A stretch of DNA of 64,000 nt from Savitreella phatthalungensis (lineage: Eukaryota). Position 1 is the stretch's first letter. Each line of letters begins with the position of its first letter. Position numbers and translations under genes: made by a program. Below are positions 31,481 to 55,662 of the stretch, one piece after another. The stretch spans positions 310,001 to 374,000 of the forward strand of contig AP039697.1 of assembly GCA_051599415.1 (NCBI GenBank), read 5' to 3'. Under the pieces are notes generated by a model. That model had not been told where the DNA came from. It made no database searches and saw only the letters and a program-made list of their open reading frames with translations.

Positions 31481-32840
31481 TCAGCACGCCTTTTCTAGCA
31501 TCGACTCGCGACCTGGCCCGACGCCGACCATGCCGACGGGTACGCCAACAAACTTCTCGATGAAACTAACGTAGTCCTTCGCAGCCTGCGGCAAGTCATC
31601 GTACGTTTTGCAGCCAGTCGTTGGGGTATTCCAGCCAGACAAGGTAACATACTCGACCTTGGCACGCTCCAAAGCATTCAAATCCGCAGGGAAATACTCA
31701 ATCTTTTTGCCGTCGACCTCGTAAGCAACTGCGACTTCAATTGACTCGAAACCATCCAGGACATCAAGCTTTGTGATGTTCAACCGGGTATAACCATTGA
31801 TGGCGGTCGAATAGCGAATCACGACGAGATCCAGCCAGCCACATCGACGCTTCCGCCCAGTGGTGACTCCCCATTCGCGACCCACGTCTTGCAGCTTTTC
31901 GCCGATCTCGTTCAACTGCTCGGAAGGAAATGGCCCGGCACCAACGCGAGTTGTATAGGCCTTGACGACGCCCCACACAGTGCCGATTTTCTGCGGTGGC
32001 ACACCTAGGCCAGTACAGACTCCACCGATCGAGGTTGGCGACGATGTGACGTACGGGTACGTGCCGAAATCGAGGTCAAGCATGAGCGCATTCGCGCCCT
32101 CAATCAGGATTCGCTTTTCCTCACGGAAAGCAGTGTGCATGAAGTGGACAGCATCGATAACGTAGGGAACAAGCGTCTTGCGAATGTCTCGATAGTAGTT
32201 CAGTTCCTCCTCAGCATCATAGTCGAATTTGCCGTAGCGAAGCGTCCGAGTAGACAGGTTTGTCCGGAAGCGCTTCTCAAATTCCTCCCAGTCGGTCATC
32301 AGATGATGTAATCGAACTCCGCTGCGCGACGACTTGGATGAATATGTCGGTCCAATTCCCTTGCGGGTGGTGCCTAGTGACTTGGAACCAAGTTCGCCCT
32401 CCTTGAGCCCGTCAACGACCTGGTGGTAATCGAATACGAGATGAGCACGGTCGCTAATGAAGATCCGGCCGTCCACGTTGAGTCCCTTGTCCACGATTGC
32501 CTGTAGCTCCTTGAAGAAAGCGGGAATGTGGACGACGCAGCCGGATCCGATCAAATTGACACATTTCGGGTTGACGAGACCGCTCGGCAAGATATGAAAG
32601 TCAAACATCTGGCCATCGACAACGATGGTGTGTCCAGCATTATTACCGCCTTGACATCTTGCACACACATCGCTTCCGTCAGTGAGGATATCGACTAGCT
32701 TGCCTTTGCCTTCATCGCCCTAGAAGCGGTCAGTCTTCATGAAATTCAGGTCTCCTCGACGGAGGTACAAGAGACTCGGCACATACCCACTGACTTCCGA
32801 GAACGACCGTGGCCAGGCCAGATTTTAGATTGACTGCCAT
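31481..32840 (-). CDS. ADE12: Adenylosuccinate synthetase; intron 32720..32786
   Basis: Splicing GTATGT..CTGAC..TAG restores [42 protein letters not shown]. Confidence 0.97.
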
Positions 32841-47331: not shown

Positions 47332-48876
47332 ATGCGGAAGCATCGAATTGGTGAAGGTCCTGATCTGCCACCAGCTTGCGATCGATGTAGGAAAAAGCAT
47401 CTCAAGTGCGACTTTGAGGAGCCTTGTCAGGGCTGCAGGCGAGCGCAAGCCGCATGCGCCCGGCCAACATCCGTGAACAAGGGTGGTCGACCGCGGAAAA
47501 TTCTCAGGACCACGACACACTGTGCCAATAGATACATGCGACGAGATTACGAAAACGGCTTGGTTGTCGAGCTCAGCGCGCGAGTCAGTCTTTCCCGTCC
47601 AGATTTTTTTGCGCATTGCTCAAACACGCCTCCCAGTCGGGTCTGGCTAGGCGCCGTGTCGAGTCGCGCCTCTTTATTTCTCCTCGTCCCAACATTCGAG
47701 AAGCTGCTGGGTCGTAGTGGTGTGTATCTGTCTACCTTGTCAGGTGTTTTGGCCTATGTCCATCAATTAGACCGAGATCTGGCGATGCCCGATGGAGCGC
47801 CGCTACCGACAAATTTGGGTCGCCCATATGATGTCCTGGAGCGCTGGTTGAGCAGAGCGCTTGATCTTCCCGGTACTCCCCCTCATCCGCTGCTCGTACG
47901 CGCTAGAAGGGCAGATGAAATTGTTGATCTGACTTTGTTGACTGAAGCTGAGGCCACGATTCTCGCAGTCCATCTCGCTTTGGGGTCTCATCTTGATGAG
48001 AACAGCTTTCCAGGCACTCCGGGAACCTATGGTCGCTGGCTGTTCTGCAGCATTCTCCCACTGCTGCCTCGACTTCTCTTGCCGGGAAGTGCTGGCAATA
48101 AGAATGGCAGCTTACCAGTTGAGATTCATGCCTGCGTCCTCATTTCGACCTACTACTTACGAGCATACAGAGGCGGTTCTTTGTGGCATATTTTGGGGGC
48201 TCTTGCCCGAAGCATTCAATTCATGGGCATCAATGACGACTTTCAGCCAGACATTCGTCGCGCCGGAGAGCAGCTTGAGGAGGCCGTATGTCTGTCGGTT
48301 GGCGGCGTGCCGGTCCTGAAGATGACAAGTCGGAGCGACGCAATCTCGATTTTCAGTACCGCTCTTCTGCATCACTTTGATGATACGGCTCCCCTTCCGC
48401 AAATTGATGGTCTTCCGAAGATTCCGTCACCAGGTAAAGATCGGCTAAGATGTGATCGCCTCGTTCTTGCGTGGTCGCGTGCGCAGCTTGCGCTCGTCCT
48501 TGAGCCTGGCAGTCCAACTGAGACAAGGAGGGGCGCGACCGAGGCTCAGCTCGAAAAAGCCTACAATATCAGAAGAGAAGCTAGAGCATGTGCACGCCGG
48601 GTCTGTGCAGACTCATCGATTGTAAGGGGCGACGTTCGACTGCAGGTTATCACGGGGCTCGACGCCCCAACCTTCTACGATGCAATCGTTTTCCTGCTGG
48701 TTGACGGCCTAAGCGATCCTTCGGCTTGCAAGGACAACGCTTCTATTTGCCTAGATTCTTGTCGGCGGGCGCTCGCGACATCGGCAGTGAAAGCGGCGAG
48801 TAGCTTCGAGGCTACGATCAGTTTCTTCCTCAGATGCGCAGAGATCGTTGAAATTGCCGCGGTAAGCCTCGGCTAA
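47332..48876 (+). CDS. Zn(II)2Cys6 transcription factor with degenerate middle homology region
   Basis: ACDRCRKKHLKCDFEEPCQGCRRAQAAC; GGRPRK; LWHILGALARSIQFMGI MHR-like segment. Confidence 0.85.
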   Translation: MRKHRIGEGPDLPPACDRCRKKHLKCDFEEPCQGCRRAQAACARPTSVNKGGRPRKILRTTTHCANRYMRRDYENGLVVELSARVSLSRPDFFAHCSNTPPSRVWLGAVSSRASLFLLVPTFEKLLGRSGVYLSTLSGVLAYVHQLDRDLAMPDGAPLPTNLGRPYDVLERWLSRALDLPGTPPHPLLVRARRADEIVDLTLLTEAEATILAVHLALGSHLDENSFPGTPGTYGRWLFCSILPLLPRLLLPGSAGNKNGSLPVEIHACVLISTYYLRAYRGGSLWHILGALARSIQFMGINDDFQPDIRRAGEQLEEAVCLSVGGVPVLKMTSRSDAISIFSTALLHHFDDTAPLPQIDGLPKIPSPGKDRLRCDRLVLAWSRAQLALVLEPGSPTETRRGATEAQLEKAYNIRREARACARRVCADSSIVRGDVRLQVITGLDAPTFYDAIVFLLVDGLSDPSACKDNASICLDSCRRALATSAVKAASSFEATISFFLRCAEIVEIAAVSLG

Positions 48877-49230
48877 TCGTGACTACGTTCTGGAGCATTT
48901 CCGCGATCATGAGTCTGCTGGGCGCGCGATGCGAAGGCCTCTTCACAATATTCAGACACATATCCACCGTTCTCGCACAGCCTCGATGTATTCACATGCC
49001 AAGGTAAGTGACACCAAGGTGCAAGTGTTGAATATTCTACTTCGCGCCCAGCGTTCGGCTCGTTGGACGACAACAAACAGCTTTTGCGCTATCACGACAA
49101 CCATCGCGCCACAGGGATGTCCCGGTCAGATGGATATTCCAAACAACAGCTAGCATTTTATTCCATTCTCCCCCACACACACCTTTCTCCAGCACATATC
49201 GCGCCCTAGATCCTCCTAGACATGCTTACT

Positions 49231-49648
49231 GTCGCGACCAATCTGTGGCCCGGGTCGATCGTATACGATTCGTACACGACGCCGTCACTTCCGCAATCAC
49301 TCGGTCTACATATGACAAAATAGTAGCCCCGTATGGAGCTGTCAAATAGTATCGTTCTGTGCTAGGTCCTGGTGATGGTGATCTCTGGCACGCTGTCTCT
49401 GTATGGCGTGATGCGTCCTCTTGTACCCTACCAACCTGCCATGTCAGCAGAGTTGTGGTATGTATTGGTTATAGCATGGTCAGTGTCACCGCCTAGATTG
49501 TCTCTTGTAGTCCCTCGTGTCTGTTTGTACTTGTTTGTATCTCCCCATGTTCTTTGGTGTACTCCGTCTGTGTTCTCCTGTGTTGTCTGGCTTGTGTCCG
49601 TGTCGCTTTGTCTGTCGCTCTCGGGCCCTGCGGCCGTCCTCCGCGACA
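49231..49648 (+). repeat. Repeat family copy A
   Basis: Aligns by eye with copy C directly and with B and D in reverse complement (e.g. GTCACTTCyGCAATCACTC, GGAGCTGTCAAATAGT, TGTCGCTCTCGGG). Confidence 0.9.
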
Positions 49649-50014
49649 ATCGGCAGATCTGGCAGCTGAAACGCACGTCTTGCTTATGACAACAGATTCT
49701 GTTAAGCCTTCTTTTGCAAGCCAGTTTTCATGCTGCTACCTGAACATCTGTGGCATATTGCAAATGGGCCTGTTGACTTCTCATGTGGGTTTTCAGAGCT
49801 CTTGAGTCATTCTGCAGTTCCTGTAGCATCTTATGTACTAAATCTTCCTTTCTGTCAAAACATCACTCAGTGACTTTGCAGTTGAGCCACACACATGTTC
49901 AAAGATGGTAGGTTGGAGTGACACAAGTCAATAGGAGGAACAAGAATGCGTAGGAAGAAAGTTGTAGATCTTTTGATATGGCAAAGCAACAGACCTTGCA
50001 AGCGCTGTTGTGTG

Positions 50015-50640
50015 TCGCGGACGACGATTGCAGGATCCGAGAGCAACAAACAAAGCAACACAGACACAACCAAGACAACACAGGAGAACCCAGATGGAGT
50101 CCAACAAAGGATACAAACAGATACAAATGAATCCTAATGGACGCATAGGGACCACAGGAGGCGGTATAGCTGGTGGTTCCACTTGTGCTATGACTGCTGA
50201 TGTGGCAGGTCAAGGGGTACAAGAGGATGCAACATGCTGTATGGAGACAGCATGCCAGATAACACCAACACCAGGACTTAGTACAGAACAATACTATTTG
50301 ACAGCTCCTTACAGGGCTACTATTTTGTCATATGTAGGTTGAGTGATTGCAGAAGTGACAGCGTTGTGTGCAAAGTGTATACAATTGACCCCGGCCACCT
50401 GGTGGTCGCGACATCTTGGCAATGTGTTCATGTGGCAAAAGTGAGCAGACCGCTCTGTAGCCATCAGCTCTTTGAGGGCACAGACTTTATTTGGTTTCAG
50501 TTCCATGTCTCTAATTAAGGTTGAAGAAGTTGAACAGTCTATGCAAGGACATTCAGCAAGCTGGAAATATTTTCGTCCACCCATGTCTTCTTGTTGTTTC
50601 CTCGAATATCCATCTGACTGGAACATCGCTTTACACAATC
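50015..50640 (-). repeat. Repeat family copy B (inverted relative to A/C)
   Basis: 50191-50388 is the reverse complement of 50995-51192 with 4 mismatches; flanks are more diverged. Ends approximate. Confidence 0.9.
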
Positions 50641-50819
50641 ATTTGAAAGTGAGTCAAATGGCACTGATGGCCGCAACAACTGGTAGATATAAGCAGTTTC
50701 GAATCGTGCTAATATTGTTCTATGAAATCGACCAATATAGTCTGATTTTGCGTTGATTTCGATCTGAAAGGCCACAATAGCCATCATTTGTCACTATACA
50801 AGTTCGAAAGTTCGAAGCT

Positions 50820-51369
50820 CTATGCATACAGAGCGATGTCCCGTTGAGATGCATGACTCTAGAGACAGCAACATCTCGACATGGGTGAGCAGATACAGCC
50901 ACATCTTGCTCAGTAAATGCAATGTACAGAGCTGTTTGGTCAGATGGGTTGTTTCCAAGCGAAACCCTCTGGAACAACCACTCTGTGGCCTGGATCGATT
51001 GTATACACTTTGCACACAACGCTGTCACTTCTGCAATCACTCGACCTACATATGACAAAATAGTAGCCCTGTAAGGAGCTGTCAAATAGTATTGGTCTGT
51101 ACTAGGTCCTGGTGTTGGTGTTATCTGGCATGCTGTCTCCATACAGCATGTTGCATCCTCTTGTACCCCTTGACCTGCCACATCAGCAGTCAAAGCACAA
51201 TTGGCACAACTGCCTAGATTGCTTCCTGTACTCCCTCCATGTCTGGTGGTACTTCTTTGTATCTCTCCATGTTCCTTGGTGGACTCTGTCTGTGTCCTCC
51301 TGTGTTGTCTGACTTGTGTCTGTGTCGCTTTGTCTGTCGCTCTCGGGTCCTGCGGTCGTCCTCCGCAAC
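50820..51369 (+). repeat. Repeat family copy C
   Basis: Matches B (inverted) and A (direct). Left end approximate, based on the shared CACCCATGTC...ACATCGCT segment. Confidence 0.9.
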
Positions 51370-51489
51370 AGCTAGTCACTACTGACATGGTATATTGACC
51401 CTAGATACAAAGGGACAGCACGCTGTATGTATACAGCGTGCAAGATTGTCATACATAGACCGAGTGCTTGCAGAAGTGACAGTATTGCA

Positions 51490-52045
51490 GAAGACGATCG
51501 CAGGACCCGAGAGCGACGGATAGAGCGACACGGACACGAACTAGACGACACAGCAGGACCCAGACCGAGCCGTACGAAGAACAAGAACGACTATGAACAG
51601 ATACACGAGTCCAAACAGACACAGAAGGAATATTAGAGAGGTCGTCTGGGCAGTGATTTTGGCCCATGCCGATACATACCACAACTCTGCTGATGTGATT
51701 GGTCATTGCTGACGTGGCAGGTTGTTCCTGCTACGAGAAGACATGGCACGCTTCATGAAGACGGCGTGCAAGATACCATCGGACAGGACCTAGCACAAGG
51801 ACACTGCTATTCGACAGCTCCTTACGCGGCAAACGTCTTGTCATGCGTGAACTGAGTGATTGCGGAAGTGACAGAGTCGCGTACGGAGTGTATATGATCG
51901 AATTGGACGAGTTAGCGGTCGCAAGATGGTGGTTCTCTGTCCTTAGTACAAGGTCGAGGAATGTAAAGTCTTCAAGTGCACTGCGCAAGATGTTTTGTTC
52001 ACCCATGTCTGTTTGCTGTTCTGAGTATTCATTTGACCGCGACAC
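51490..52045 (-). repeat. Repeat family copy D (most diverged, retains several CpGs); extra fragments at ~51378-51487 and ~52350-52410
   Basis: CAGGACCCGAGAGCGAC, GCTGACGTGGCAGG, GACAGCTCCTTAC, GAGTGATTGCGGAAGTGAC and CACCCATGTC are shared with B. Confidence 0.82.
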
Positions 52046-54081
52046 CCCAGTGGACAGACGGACACAGACACAGGAGGACTACAATATATGCTGCTTGATC
52101 TCGAGCTAGAAAAATTTGCTCCCATATTCAGGACAAAGCATTTCTAGACGCCTGCAGGGTGTCCATCGCAGCGGGACAAATGATGATGCGCACGATGTTG
52201 GCCTTTTTAAACTACGCGCTGAGCGGGACATCCGTGTATCTGATATGGCATCCTCTGGTTCAGATCACATCAGTGACTGTCTCTGATTGCTCTCTGTGGC
52301 TGTATGTAACATTTATCTCTATCGGACTTCTGGGTCCAGGACAGTCCTGTTGGTCTGCTGAGAGTGTCGCTTTGTCCCGTCGCTCTCAGGTCCTGCGACT
52401 GCCCTGCGCAAATTTACCAATGCAGAACTGTTTGCAAATGCATACAGATACAGGAATGCATGCGCACGGCCAGGGCGATCGACCACTTGCGATAGTGCAT
52501 TGTCTTGTCGCCAAATCACATTGCTTCCAGTACTCAGGCTCTTAAACAGGCCATCATGGAGTCTAAGCAAGAGAATTCGTAGGCTTGAGTGCTTGGGAGA
52601 ACCGTTAATCACAAACGAGTTTTTTGTCGTGGCGTCTGTTGTACAACCGTATGTATTTGTGCCCCTGGCACAATCGCGCAGTGCAATGTCTTCGGACGGT
52701 CGTACTCGTTCTTTGGCCCTTTGGGTTGAGTTGTTGCGCTTCTTACTGCCGCTACTTTGCATGCTATTCGTTTCGAGCTATGCTGAGTCTCCTCTGCAGT
52801 AAGGTCCGAGTCAGGCAAGATGGAACATCATACAGACGATCAAGCTATGTGATAGGCGATCCGAGGTAGGTGTTGGAGATGCAGGGGGCATGTATAGACC
52901 ATACTTCTTGTGCAATGTGTGTGTCGCATCAGCGCTCTTTTGCAGAATTCTCTGACTGGACCGCCCTGATCTCAGCTCCGACGCTTACCGCCTGTGCAGA
53001 CTGCCTCGGTGATCAAACAAGATGTGACATTCTTTTACTATCTCATGTTTCTCCGGCCGTGCCTGTCTACATGCTGCACGGCGTTCGTCAGAGTATCCTT
53101 GTGCTGCACTTTCAAACTTCTGTTTCTGTTCATTCCGGTTTTGGCAAAATGATCTCGTCTTAGTAATCTCACGGCCCTTTCGGGTATCAAAACTGCATCA
53201 AGACGCCGCGAAGCTCACTGTGTATCTCGTGACGATGAGCTCTCTTGCAAACCTGCTTCAGGGTCTCACACGATAATAGGATTCAATAAACTTGTATTTG
53301 CGCATACCACTCTCCAGTGTTTGATCTGTACGCAGAGTGTAGTAGCACGTGAGTTATATGCCGCAAACTCAAGGGGATGTGTCTGACGATTGTGTTGTAG
53401 GGCTTGATCGCCTCAAGCAATTTGAGACGAATCAACATGGAGAATCGAGTGATCTGGTGTCACCCCGACGGACAGAGGCAGAACCGCGTCTGGGTAAAGA
53501 AGTGCGGCGAAGTGCTCAGCTCATCATATCTTTAATTCCTTGGACACCAGAGACAGGGCATTTAGCAAGCATTTTCACGAGCCGCCTCAGTGGCAGCTCC
53601 ATTACTATAATTTCTGTCTCTGTGTGAATGAGTCAGTGAACTTGCCGCTCGACCGAATTGCGTTCGCAGTAGCATGAAGCCAATCAGGTCAGACAACAAT
53701 TCCACATCTCGCCTCGTCACCCACGGCAGACTGCGTTGAGGACACGTAGAAGACCAAGAGTTGCGGTATAACGTGTCTGGGCCAGTCTCGGAATTGAATG
53801 GGTGAGGAATGCTGCACGTGTTGTGAATCTGTCACTACCCAAGCGCTCTGCCGCCGTGTCCCGTTCTGGCGCTGGCTACATTTGGCAGTGAGCATAGTTT
53901 TCGGCTTGTCAACGTGTGCTACCACGAAGCCAAGCCACCGGTGATTCAGCTTGACAGGTGTGGAGCCGGAAAATGTCGGGGTCATAATCCGGCAGAACTG
54001 AGTAGTATTTCCGCTTGTGTCCTACGATAAATAGAAAGATCATATCCCGCCGGCGGTGGTCCACCTTGCTGCAGAATCACA

Positions 54082-55662
54082 ATGCTTTGGCTCACGCTTC
54101 TGCTGCAGGTGCGCTGTGTCCTGTGCCAGTCATCTCCTTCGCAGCCAGTAGTCGATATAGGTTATGCCCGTGTCCGAGGTTTCACCGAGACCTCGACCTC
54201 CACAGAGGCGTTCAAGGGCGTGAGGTATGCGGCACCCCCCAAAAGATGGCAGAGAGCGACGGCGCCTGCAACAAATCGCACGGCTATTATCGATGCCACA
54301 GCTTATGCATCTCGTTGTCCGCAATCTGCAAGCGCCGGCGGCAGCGACATCGATCCACTTGCGGGCGGATTAGCTTCTGAAGACTGCCTCTTCCTCAATG
54401 TTTTTCGACCTGCCAAAACGAATTCGAGCGCGATGTTGCCGGTTGCAGTGTACTTTCACGGAGGCGGCTATAGTCAGCTTACCGCAAACATCAATGCAAC
54501 CTACTTGTCCCGGCTCTCCGGTGAGAATTTCTTGTTCGTTTCTGTCGCTTATCGCCTTGGAGCCCTTGGCTTCCTAGCTTCACAAGAGCTTGTCGAAGGT
54601 GGAGGCATCCTCAACGTTGGCTTACTGGACCAAGAATTTGCGCTGCAGTGGGTCAATACGCATATCGCCGCCTTCGGAGGAGATCCTTCTCGCGTAACGA
54701 TTTGGGGAGAATCTGCCGGAGGCGGCTCTGTGATGCAGCACCTACTTGCGTATGATGGGAAACGCAATCGAACCCTCTTCAATCAAGCGATCCTGGCATC
54801 CCCTTCCCTGCCGCAGCAGCGCTGGTACAACGATAGCATTCCCACTGCCTATTATCGGGCTTTTGTGGACGCCGCTGGATGCACGAATAAAGCAAATGTT
54901 GTCGATTGCTTGAGGACAGCTGATCTCGCAATCGTTGCAGGTGCTTCGAATAATGTCAGTCGCACTGCTCCTTCGCGACGCTGGGCATTCAACCCCGTGA
55001 TCGATGGAACTTTCGTGACCGGGCGACCTAGCGAGCTTCTGCTCAGACAGCAAATCGTTCAAAACGTCAGTCTGCTGGTCGGCTCCAATTTCGATGAGGG
55101 CTCTGTCTTTATTCCGAGTAATATCACCAATGCGGAGTCTTTCGAAGATTGGTTGACAACACTGCTGCCGAAATTCACCAACCTAGCTCGCGCGAAGCTG
55201 AGGACGTACTATCCTGCACATGCATATGCGACACAGTTCCGTCGTGCTGCCTCTGTACTAGCCGACACGATCTATAATTGCCCAGCTGTCTGGCTGGCTG
55301 ATGCAGCACAAGTCTCGTGGCGCTATCAATACGACGTGGCGCCTGGATTACATGGCCTTGATCTAACGCACTACTTGCCGACAGCAGCTGGTATAGGTAC
55401 GCCAGGTGCAAGTGCTGTAGCTTTCGATACGGCATTCGCAACCATCTTTTCCAGCTTCATTGTACGGGGCAGACCTGTCAGCAATGGCACCTTCGCTCTA
55501 CCGCGCTGGGCAGTAAATGCGACAGACGACGTTCGCCAGGCCCGCTTCAATCGTACAACTACCGGGAGTCCGAACATCACTGTCTCAGCAGGCCGATACA
55601 TCACGAGCGGCCGCGACAGGTGTGACTTTTGGCTCGCTTACGCTCCATTGGTGCCAGAATGA
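54082..55662 (+). CDS. Secreted type-B carboxylesterase/lipase
   Basis: Signal peptide, FKGVRYAAPP, SEDCLFLNV, FHGGGY, WGESAGG, N-glycosylation sequons. Confidence 0.94.
   Translation: MLWLTLLLQVRCVLCQSSPSQPVVDIGYARVRGFTETSTSTEAFKGVRYAAPPKRWQRATAPATNRTAIIDATAYASRCPQSASAGGSDIDPLAGGLASEDCLFLNVFRPAKTNSSAMLPVAVYFHGGGYSQLTANINATYLSRLSGENFLFVSVAYRLGALGFLASQELVEGGGILNVGLLDQEFALQWVNTHIAAFGGDPSRVTIWGESAGGGSVMQHLLAYDGKRNRTLFNQAILASPSLPQQRWYNDSIPTAYYRAFVDAAGCTNKANVVDCLRTADLAIVAGASNNVSRTAPSRRWAFNPVIDGTFVTGRPSELLLRQQIVQNVSLLVGSNFDEGSVFIPSNITNAESFEDWLTTLLPKFTNLARAKLRTYYPAHAYATQFRRAASVLADTIYNCPAVWLADAAQVSWRYQYDVAPGLHGLDLTHYLPTAAGIGTPGASAVAFDTAFATIFSSFIVRGRPVSNGTFALPRWAVNATDDVRQARFNRTTTGSPNITVSAGRYITSGRDRCDFWLAYAPLVPE

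Follow-up and report, generated by a model that had tools for sequence, protein, structure and literature searches.

The genome of the yeast Savitreella phatthalungensis contains a cluster of related non-coding repeats in which CpG dinucleotides have decayed by C-to-T transitions; the decay is directional, and it affects some copies of the cluster but not others. The cluster occupies 49.1 to 52.4 kb of a 64,000-nucleotide (nt) stretch of contig AP039697.1 (assembly GCA_051599415.1, positions 310,001 to 374,000, forward strand). This stretch was analyzed over its full length and is called the window here; all coordinates refer to it. A preliminary description, drawn up from the letters alone, had taken the cluster for the footprint of a CpG-directed genome defense resembling methylation or repeat-induced point mutation (RIP).

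CpG loss in part of a repeat cluster

Comparison of the window with itself revealed a 0.56- to 0.64-kb repeat, present in mixed orientation as four full copies and two partial ones, and no further copies in the rest of the 64 kb. The cores of the full copies, A to D, are about 400 to 440 nt long with pairwise identities of 66 to 85%, and a weaker homology block about 100 nt upstream of every core extends the unit to its full length. Copy A (positions 49095 to 49664, core 49230 to 49664, plus strand) carries the ends TGTCCCGG...CCGCGACA at 49118 and 49648. Copy B (49997 to 50640, core 49997 to 50413, minus strand) carries a 5′ extension that includes an insertion of 76 nt and runs to about 50640. 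Its sister, copy C (50835 to 51370, core 50977 to 51370, plus strand), has a 37-nt deletion in common with it at 85% identity, and the two make up an inverted repeat of 394 nt whose arms are 86% complementary and lie 570 nt apart. Copy D (51487 to 52050, core 51487 to 51922, minus strand) is the most divergent, at 66 to 72% identity to the other copies; A reaches at most 83%. The tails of A and B are separated by a 332-nt piece, s1 (49665 to 49996), and the heads of B and C by a unique 194-nt spacer, s2 (50641 to 50834). The partial copies are E (51371 to 51486, minus strand), which is rearranged with two internal deletions and abuts C and D, and F (52364 to 52411, plus strand), a fragment of 48 nt from the 3′ end of the unit. 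Both were excluded from all counts.

The CpG observed-to-expected ratio (o/e) is 1.06 for the window, 1.08 for DNA covered by open reading frames (ORFs) and 1.07 for other non-ORF DNA. Since both kinds of DNA stand at these levels, the genome has no general CpG deficit, and the flanking genes are rich in CpG, as had been remarked. The 2-kb segment from 49301 to 51300, by comparison, has an o/e of 0.48, lower than the other intergenic DNA of the 64 kb and than the minimum of 0.88 found outside 47 to 53 kb. The cluster also holds the window's three longest runs without CpG, with lengths of 284 nt (51042 to 51326, in C), 273 nt (49676 to 49949, in s1) and 200 nt (50162 to 50362); the longest elsewhere is 125 nt. 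The second of these is the CpG-free stretch of about 270 nt that had been remarked on.

The loss is concentrated in three pieces. The most depleted is s1, with an o/e of 0.20, that is, 3 CpGs where about 16 are expected, and a TG+CA o/e of 1.55 (Poisson p 9e-5, reckoned here and below against the CpG level of the window). For B the CpG o/e is 0.48 to 0.50 in the core (p 0.002) and 0.39 in the extension, and for C it is 0.37 to 0.38 in the core (p 2e-4) and 0.37 in the extension. In contrast, A is not depleted (core 0.97, segments 0.81 to 1.12), nor is the core of D (1.18 to 1.19) or s2 (8 CpGs, o/e 1.08). The value for E, 0.54 on 116 nt, is not significant.

CpG loss was matched by a gain of TpG and CpA on both strands, as expected for passive deamination of 5-methylcytosine (5mC) in CpG. 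The TpG/CpA o/e in B, C and s1 is 1.55 to 1.65. When the three pieces are pooled, only CG (o/e 0.38, against 1.06 for the window), CA (1.58 against 1.19) and TG (1.55 against 1.18) depart from the window, TA being at 0.59 against 0.57; a CpG deficit of about 56 faces a TG+CA surplus of about 77, with TG (151) and CA (143) in balance. The o/e statistic allows for the GC content of the depleted pieces, 0.42 to 0.49. RIP of the canonical kind raises TpA/ApT above 0.89 and lowers (CpA+TpG)/(ApC+GpT) below 1.03. Both indices are negative for 49301 to 51400, at 0.74 and 1.30, so that, in agreement with the preliminary description, the decay is not of the Neurospora CpA type.

Direction was read from pairs of copies by counting CG in the first against TG or CA in the second, and the reverse. 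The counts were 18:0 from A to C, 20:2 from A to B, 24:4 from D to B and 20:2 from D to C; A against D (12:13) and B against C (4:5) were even. The controls, GC versus GT/AC and CpA to TpA, were few and symmetric, with 1 to 7 CpA-to-TpA changes per pair. The repeat cluster with CpG-directed C-to-T change that had been reported is thus real, and the strings quoted in its support are all in place: A at 49281 and C at 51021 differ at two CpGs, and the pairs GGCACGC/GGCATGC and GCGTCC/GCATCC are as given.

Polarized tests gave the same answer. With agreement of A and D taken as the ancestral state, CpG transitions were found at 11/28 sites in B and 8/28 in C, compared with 9/74 and 5/74 at CpH (H, any base but G; p 0.004 and 0.006), and the CpG sites had zero transversions; the well-aligned blocks alone yielded the same CpG-specific result. 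With D as reference, the fraction of CG kept was 0.42 in A, 0.09 in B and 0.18 in C, and that of GC 0.58, 0.50 and 0.50. Of the 16 dinucleotides, CG has the lowest retention in B; in C only TT is lower (0.16), and in A it is unremarkable. Leaving aside sites changed uniformly in A, B and C, D has CG at 16 sites, of which A lost one, B 13 and C nine (A versus C, p 0.005). These losses and the directional asymmetries together assign the decay to the B/C lineage.

Strand choice, timing and reach of the decay

The strand that changes depends on the base 5′ of the CpG. Where a pyrimidine precedes the CpG on one strand only, that strand was changed in 32 of 36 events; counted by site, 23 show the favored change only, 1 the unfavored only and 3 both (p 3e-6). 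In the TG-rich 3′ half of the unit, the effects of strand and context cannot be separated. The first 240 alignment columns interleave both classes, and here YCGY sites became TG nine times and CA twice, and RCGR sites TG never and CA three times (Y, pyrimidine; R, purine; p 0.027). The strictest polarized set gave changes at 7/10 YCG and 2/13 RCG sites (p 0.013), 1/26 YCH and 4/32 RCH. By 5′ base, the proportions were 5/7 for TCG, 2/3 for CCG, 2/6 for ACG and 0/7 for GCG, or 5/7 for TCG against 4/16 for VCG (V, any base but T). CpGs with a 5′ purine on both strands were also lost (2/2), and the data thus show a rule of strand choice, not an immunity of RCG. Outside the alignment, the sole hint of the pyrimidine rule is that the three residual CpGs of s1 are all RCGY.

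A site with three states had been cited as independent deamination of either strand of one CpG. It corresponds to column 232 of alignment A1, with CG in D, TG in A and CA in B and C, and CG, TG and CA occur in different copies at five more columns (48, 203, 299, 328 and 385). Both strands were indeed hit; the choice between them, however, was not free but followed the 5′ base.

Of the sites changed in both B and C, 13/16 are in the same state and 3/16 in opposite states, showing that most of the decay predates the B/C split, or else that gene conversion between the inverted arms spread the changes. The polarized losses comprise seven common to B and C, four in B only and one in C only; some CpG loss is thus later than the separation of the two copies. 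On their shared branch, 7/28 CpGs changed (25%), compared with 4/74 CpH and 6/127 A/T sites (about 5%, in both directions). Change at CpG thus exceeds the background about five-fold, over a long span and not in a clean burst, although a burst long ago with neutral drift since then would leave much the same picture.

The spacer s2 bears on how far the decay reached. At the CpG level of its neighbors (0.40) it should hold 3.0 CpGs, and it holds 8 (p 0.011). It contains TTCGAA three times, and TCG makes up 11/16 of its CpG-strand contexts, the most vulnerable under the pyrimidine rule, yet it is intact. The main decay was therefore limited to the element, or took place earlier than the flanking of s2 by B and C. 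Copies A and D, as undecayed local duplicates, argue that the trigger is not local duplication in itself. The earlier proposal that the fungus targets local duplications thus stands only in part: B and C were hit and s2 was spared, as confinement to duplicated DNA, a hallmark of RIP, would have it, yet A and D are undepleted, s1 is the most depleted piece although single-copy in the window, and the losses of B and C are mostly shared.

No second copy of s1 was found in the window, and homology among s1, s2 and the outer flanks did not exceed that of shuffled sequences; palindromy of s1 and s2 was likewise absent. Probably s1 belongs to the same element as B, and it may have further copies elsewhere in the genome. 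The states of E match A, D or B/C variously at different CpG sites, and E joins D through the short common stretch CAATAC (51371 to 51490); E represents either a lineage of its own outside B/C or a recombinant.

Candidate causes of the decay

We tentatively regard CpG methylation of the element by a Dnmt1-family enzyme, followed by deamination, as the most likely cause. One lineage of the element, the ancestor of B and C, probably with s1 attached, would have undergone CpG-directed C-to-T mutation that A and D, the older copies, and neighboring unique DNA escaped. Its CpGs would have been methylated by a cytosine methyltransferase of this family (DIM-2/Masc2/RID-like), of which homologues are described in related Taphrinomycotina, and the methylated cytosines deaminated to thymine, preferentially after a 5′ pyrimidine, in a process that may have been long-lasting and ongoing after B and C separated. 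The place that the lineage occupied while decaying may or may not have been its present one.

Several observations weigh against this account. Passive deamination of 5mC should be independent of the base 5′ of the CpG, and the changes are not. As Horns et al. argue in the text cited (PMC3318451), such a dependence is unlike passive deamination, and it would fit an enzyme-driven, RIP-like process better; a flank preference of the methyltransferase could be an alternative source of the rule. The depleted pieces outside the alignment (s1 and the extensions) lend the rule no independent support, with a YTG:RTG ratio of 1.26 against a background of 1.23. A and D, in the same cluster, are not depleted. 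The polarity of the changes depends on D as outgroup, a choice made under a rough clock because transversion distances to D (38 to 40) exceed those between A and B (23), A and C (17) and B and C (23). The events are few, with 12 polarized and 36 unpolarized CpG losses at one locus with four copies. Finally, the tabulation of substitutions by context that had been proposed as a check came out CpG-enriched in the polarized and pairwise tests, but not in a direction-free count over the four copies, in which 48/88 CpG and 67/140 CpH C-bearing columns are polymorphic (p 0.34). The latter count is not significant because D is distant and changes run both ways on its long branch.

RIP-like hypermutation ranks a close second, as a possible but doubtful explanation. 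It would consist of an enzyme-driven burst, premeiotic or mitotic, triggered by near-identical duplicates and aimed at (T/C)CG; it would be of one kind with the TpCpG hypermutation of Pucciniomycotina, and of the explanations considered it comes nearest to the preliminary description. The pyrimidine rule, which flips with context within one region, would speak for such a process, as would the excess of YCG changes over those at RCG, YCH and RCH, although TCG taken alone differs from VCG by just 5/7 to 4/16. The altered copies, B and C, are also the closest pair, and the 83% and 72% at most reached by A and D lie near or below the identity that RIP is said to require. However, the 13/16 sites in the same strand state would place the changes mostly before the B/C split unless gene conversion intervened, and the level of about 5% reached on their shared branch by T-to-C and non-CpG transitions points to a long elapsed time and not to a clean burst. 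The unique, TCG-rich s2 remained intact between the arms, as expected if duplicates are the target; s1, partnerless in the window, was nevertheless hit.

What is reported of related fungi also cuts both ways for a RIP-like burst. Homologues of RID-like and DIM-2-like cytosine methyltransferases are described in Taphrina deformans and Saitoella complicata (PMC7882544), which bears out the expectation that relatives of this lineage possess such enzymes. In the same report, a genome-wide survey classed three Taphrinomycotina genomes as devoid of RIP, though with CpA-type indices. The present locus fails these indices too. The Savitreella yeast is described as anamorphic (PMC8877625), and in Zymoseptoria tritici C-to-T mutation at CpA in methylated transposons is reported to depend on Dim2 and to occur during mitosis (PMC8016269), showing that context-specific mutation of repeats does not call for a sexual cycle.

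A context-specific process independent of methylation seems improbable, whether a cytosine deaminase with a pyrimidine-C preference attacked the inverted repeat in single-stranded or hairpin form or G:T/G:U mismatches were repaired in a context-dependent way. Deaminases of the AID/APOBEC type prefer pyrimidine-C, which the 5′ preference resembles, and the arms of B and C could offer a hairpin. But pyrimidine-C outside CpG is not elevated (YCH 1/26); a G 3′ of the C is therefore required, making such a deaminase unlikely. TG and CA were moreover gained equally, and s1 is depleted though outside the hairpin arm. That no special process was at work, and that chance, base composition, selection on the repeat or an alignment artifact produced the pattern, is very hard to credit: the nonsignificant direction-free count, the small numbers and a 3′ half of TG-rich low complexity, where only pyrimidine-context CG/TG differences are possible, would agree with it, but the Poisson values for s1 and the B and C cores, the clustering of the longest CpG-free runs, the 18:0 and 20:2 asymmetries beside symmetric controls, the agreement of the well-aligned blocks and an o/e that already includes GC content all contradict it.

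The element, its host and counterparts in other fungi

The cluster consists of relics of one repeated element, non-coding in its present form, that is probably a transposon remnant. The homology ends in TGTC(C/G)CGG...CCGCGACA, i.e., in an LTR-like (long terminal repeat) TG...CA arrangement with an 8-nt inverted repeat that is seen in A and decayed in B, C and D. A solo LTR would fit these ends, but the copies lack a target-site duplication, as no flanking direct repeat of at least 6 nt and no 8-bp duplication was present at the boundaries. Nor did we detect a reverse transcriptase, an integrase or another retroelement or transposase Pfam domain in the 30 of 50 ORFs tested from the surrounding gap and the 29 of 35 long ORFs tested from the window. 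A solo LTR is therefore not established.

A stop-to-stop ORF in copy D (51759 to 52106, plus strand) matched PF05699, the hAT C-terminal dimerization domain, at 18.8 bits (cut-off 21.4, E 0.0014), and a peptide-like stretch runs in a frame common to B and D. We did not retain a hAT transposon as an identification, as the match is below threshold, the homologous ORF of B has none, the domain overruns the end of the homology and an 8-bp duplication is missing. A phmmer search of the D ORF against 1.84 billion representatives returned three matches, all to repetitive proteins and none with a transposase domain. No tRNA genes and no Rfam families were found in the window, arguing against a tRNA-linked integration hot spot. 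A metagenome scan with a conserved 19-mer hit three loci over just 19 to 25 nt, with no homology beyond.

The palindrome GTCGCGAC opens the cores of A and B (49230 to 49238 and 50405 to 50413), and a related CGCGACA closes the unit. The palindrome might serve the element as a terminal signal or as a binding site for a protein. Matches to the motif TGTCGCGAC in the window, 23 in number, do not exceed the 23.9 expected, and its only two exact occurrences are the homologous core starts of A and B.

The cluster lies in a gap, 48877 to 54081, between a Zn2Cys6 factor gene that ends at 48876 and a carboxylesterase gene that starts near 54082. These 5.2 kb without a convincing ORF form the largest ORF-free interval of the window, the runner-up measuring 1.5 kb. 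Fifty stop-to-stop ORFs of at least 60 amino acids were listed between 48.9 and 54.1 kb, and the 30 that were tested against Pfam gave two weak matches only, both under threshold. The gap is slightly GC-poorer than its surroundings (0.45 to 0.50 against about 0.53), and its architecture is one of inverted repeat pairs, with A and B tail to tail, B and C head to head, and C and E-D tail to tail. In a bolder side reading, conceivable but far-fetched, the gap would be a small centromere of the regional type that contains methylated relics of transposons, or another heterochromatic island. Its remainder, from 52051 to 54081, has a CpG o/e of 0.65 to 0.91 and a TG+CA o/e of 1.31 to 1.38, with no detectable repeat or domain, and may be older, fully decayed element DNA.

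Elsewhere the window is gene-dense, with long uninterrupted ORFs for ordinary housekeeping genes. In the Pfam analysis, in which 29 of the 35 long ORFs kept were tested, the products included adenylosuccinate synthetase (31484 to 32719, minus strand), porin, CK2 beta and an ABC transporter, and neither a methyltransferase nor a transposon gene was among them. The top named homologues of a neighboring tRNase Z are from Taphrina deformans (38%) and Protomyces (36%). With these as its nearest named relatives, S. phatthalungensis is an early-diverging ascomycete, as had been surmised; one database source places it in Taphrinales incertae sedis.

Other fungi are known to have processes of this kind. 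For Microbotryum, Puccinia, Melampsora and Rhodotorula, Horns et al. (2012, PMC3318451) describe RIP-like hypermutation of repeats at TpCpG and, in the text cited, tell a RIP-like from a passive process by whether the base preceding the CpG matters. As reported there for Pucciniomycotina, the S. phatthalungensis cluster displays CpG C-to-T changes in repeated, transposon-like DNA, an influence of the 5′ base that appears to favor T, no CpA signature, and unaffected single-copy DNA, the last judged here within the window (s2 at 1.08, non-ORF DNA at 1.07). It departs from that account in that C as well as T is favored 5′, with the clearest split between pyrimidine and purine, and in that the host is a Taphrinales ascomycete; one locus was seen, with part of its copies altered.

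In transposons of Tuber melanosporum and other fungi, a CpG signature at C-to-T sites is ascribed to methylation resembling methylation induced premeiotically (MIP), followed by deamination of 5mC (Amselem et al., 2015, PMC4352252). Tuber is likewise an ascomycete with transposon decay of the CpG rather than the CpA type, for which a Dnmt1-family (Masc2-like) agent is proposed, but the account as cited does not include a preference for a 5′ pyrimidine. With the RIP of Neurospora and other Pezizomycotina the cluster has in common a transition-only decay of repeated DNA and, in relatives of its host, homologues of RID-like and DIM-2-like enzymes (PMC7882544). The target, however, is CpG and not CpA; both indices are negative, and CpA-to-TpA changes are few and symmetric. 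The Dim2-dependent mutation of Zymoseptoria (PMC8016269) resembles what we propose as a methyltransferase-dependent, context-specific mutation of repeats without a sexual cycle, which is relevant to a yeast described as anamorphic. Its context is CpA, as opposed to the (T/C)pCpG deduced from the sequence in S. phatthalungensis. In the literature searched, supplements lying outside it, we found no description of CpG-directed repeat decay in Taphrinomycotina.

A farther-reaching proposal, which we consider unlikely, is that Taphrinales yeasts have an active or recently active repeat-directed hypermutation of (T/C)pCpG to (T/C)pTpG that is the same as the TpCpG process of Pucciniomycotina, ancestral to Dikarya, older than CpA-type RIP and run by the RID/DIM-2-like genes that surveys found in Taphrina and Saitoella and for which no output is known. 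Surveys based on CpA-type indices class Taphrinomycotina as RIP-free, yet RID-like and DIM-2-like genes persist in some members according to the report cited (PMC7882544), and a CpG-type, pyrimidine-preceded signature would escape such indices. The present basis is a few dozen events at a single locus. If the signature holds genome-wide, it would provide a visible output for the RID-like and DIM-2-like genes. Hypermutation of the TpCpG type would then reach beyond one subphylum of basidiomycetes into an ascomycete lineage that branched early, and the age of repeat-directed cytosine mutation in Dikarya would become testable in small, compact yeast genomes.

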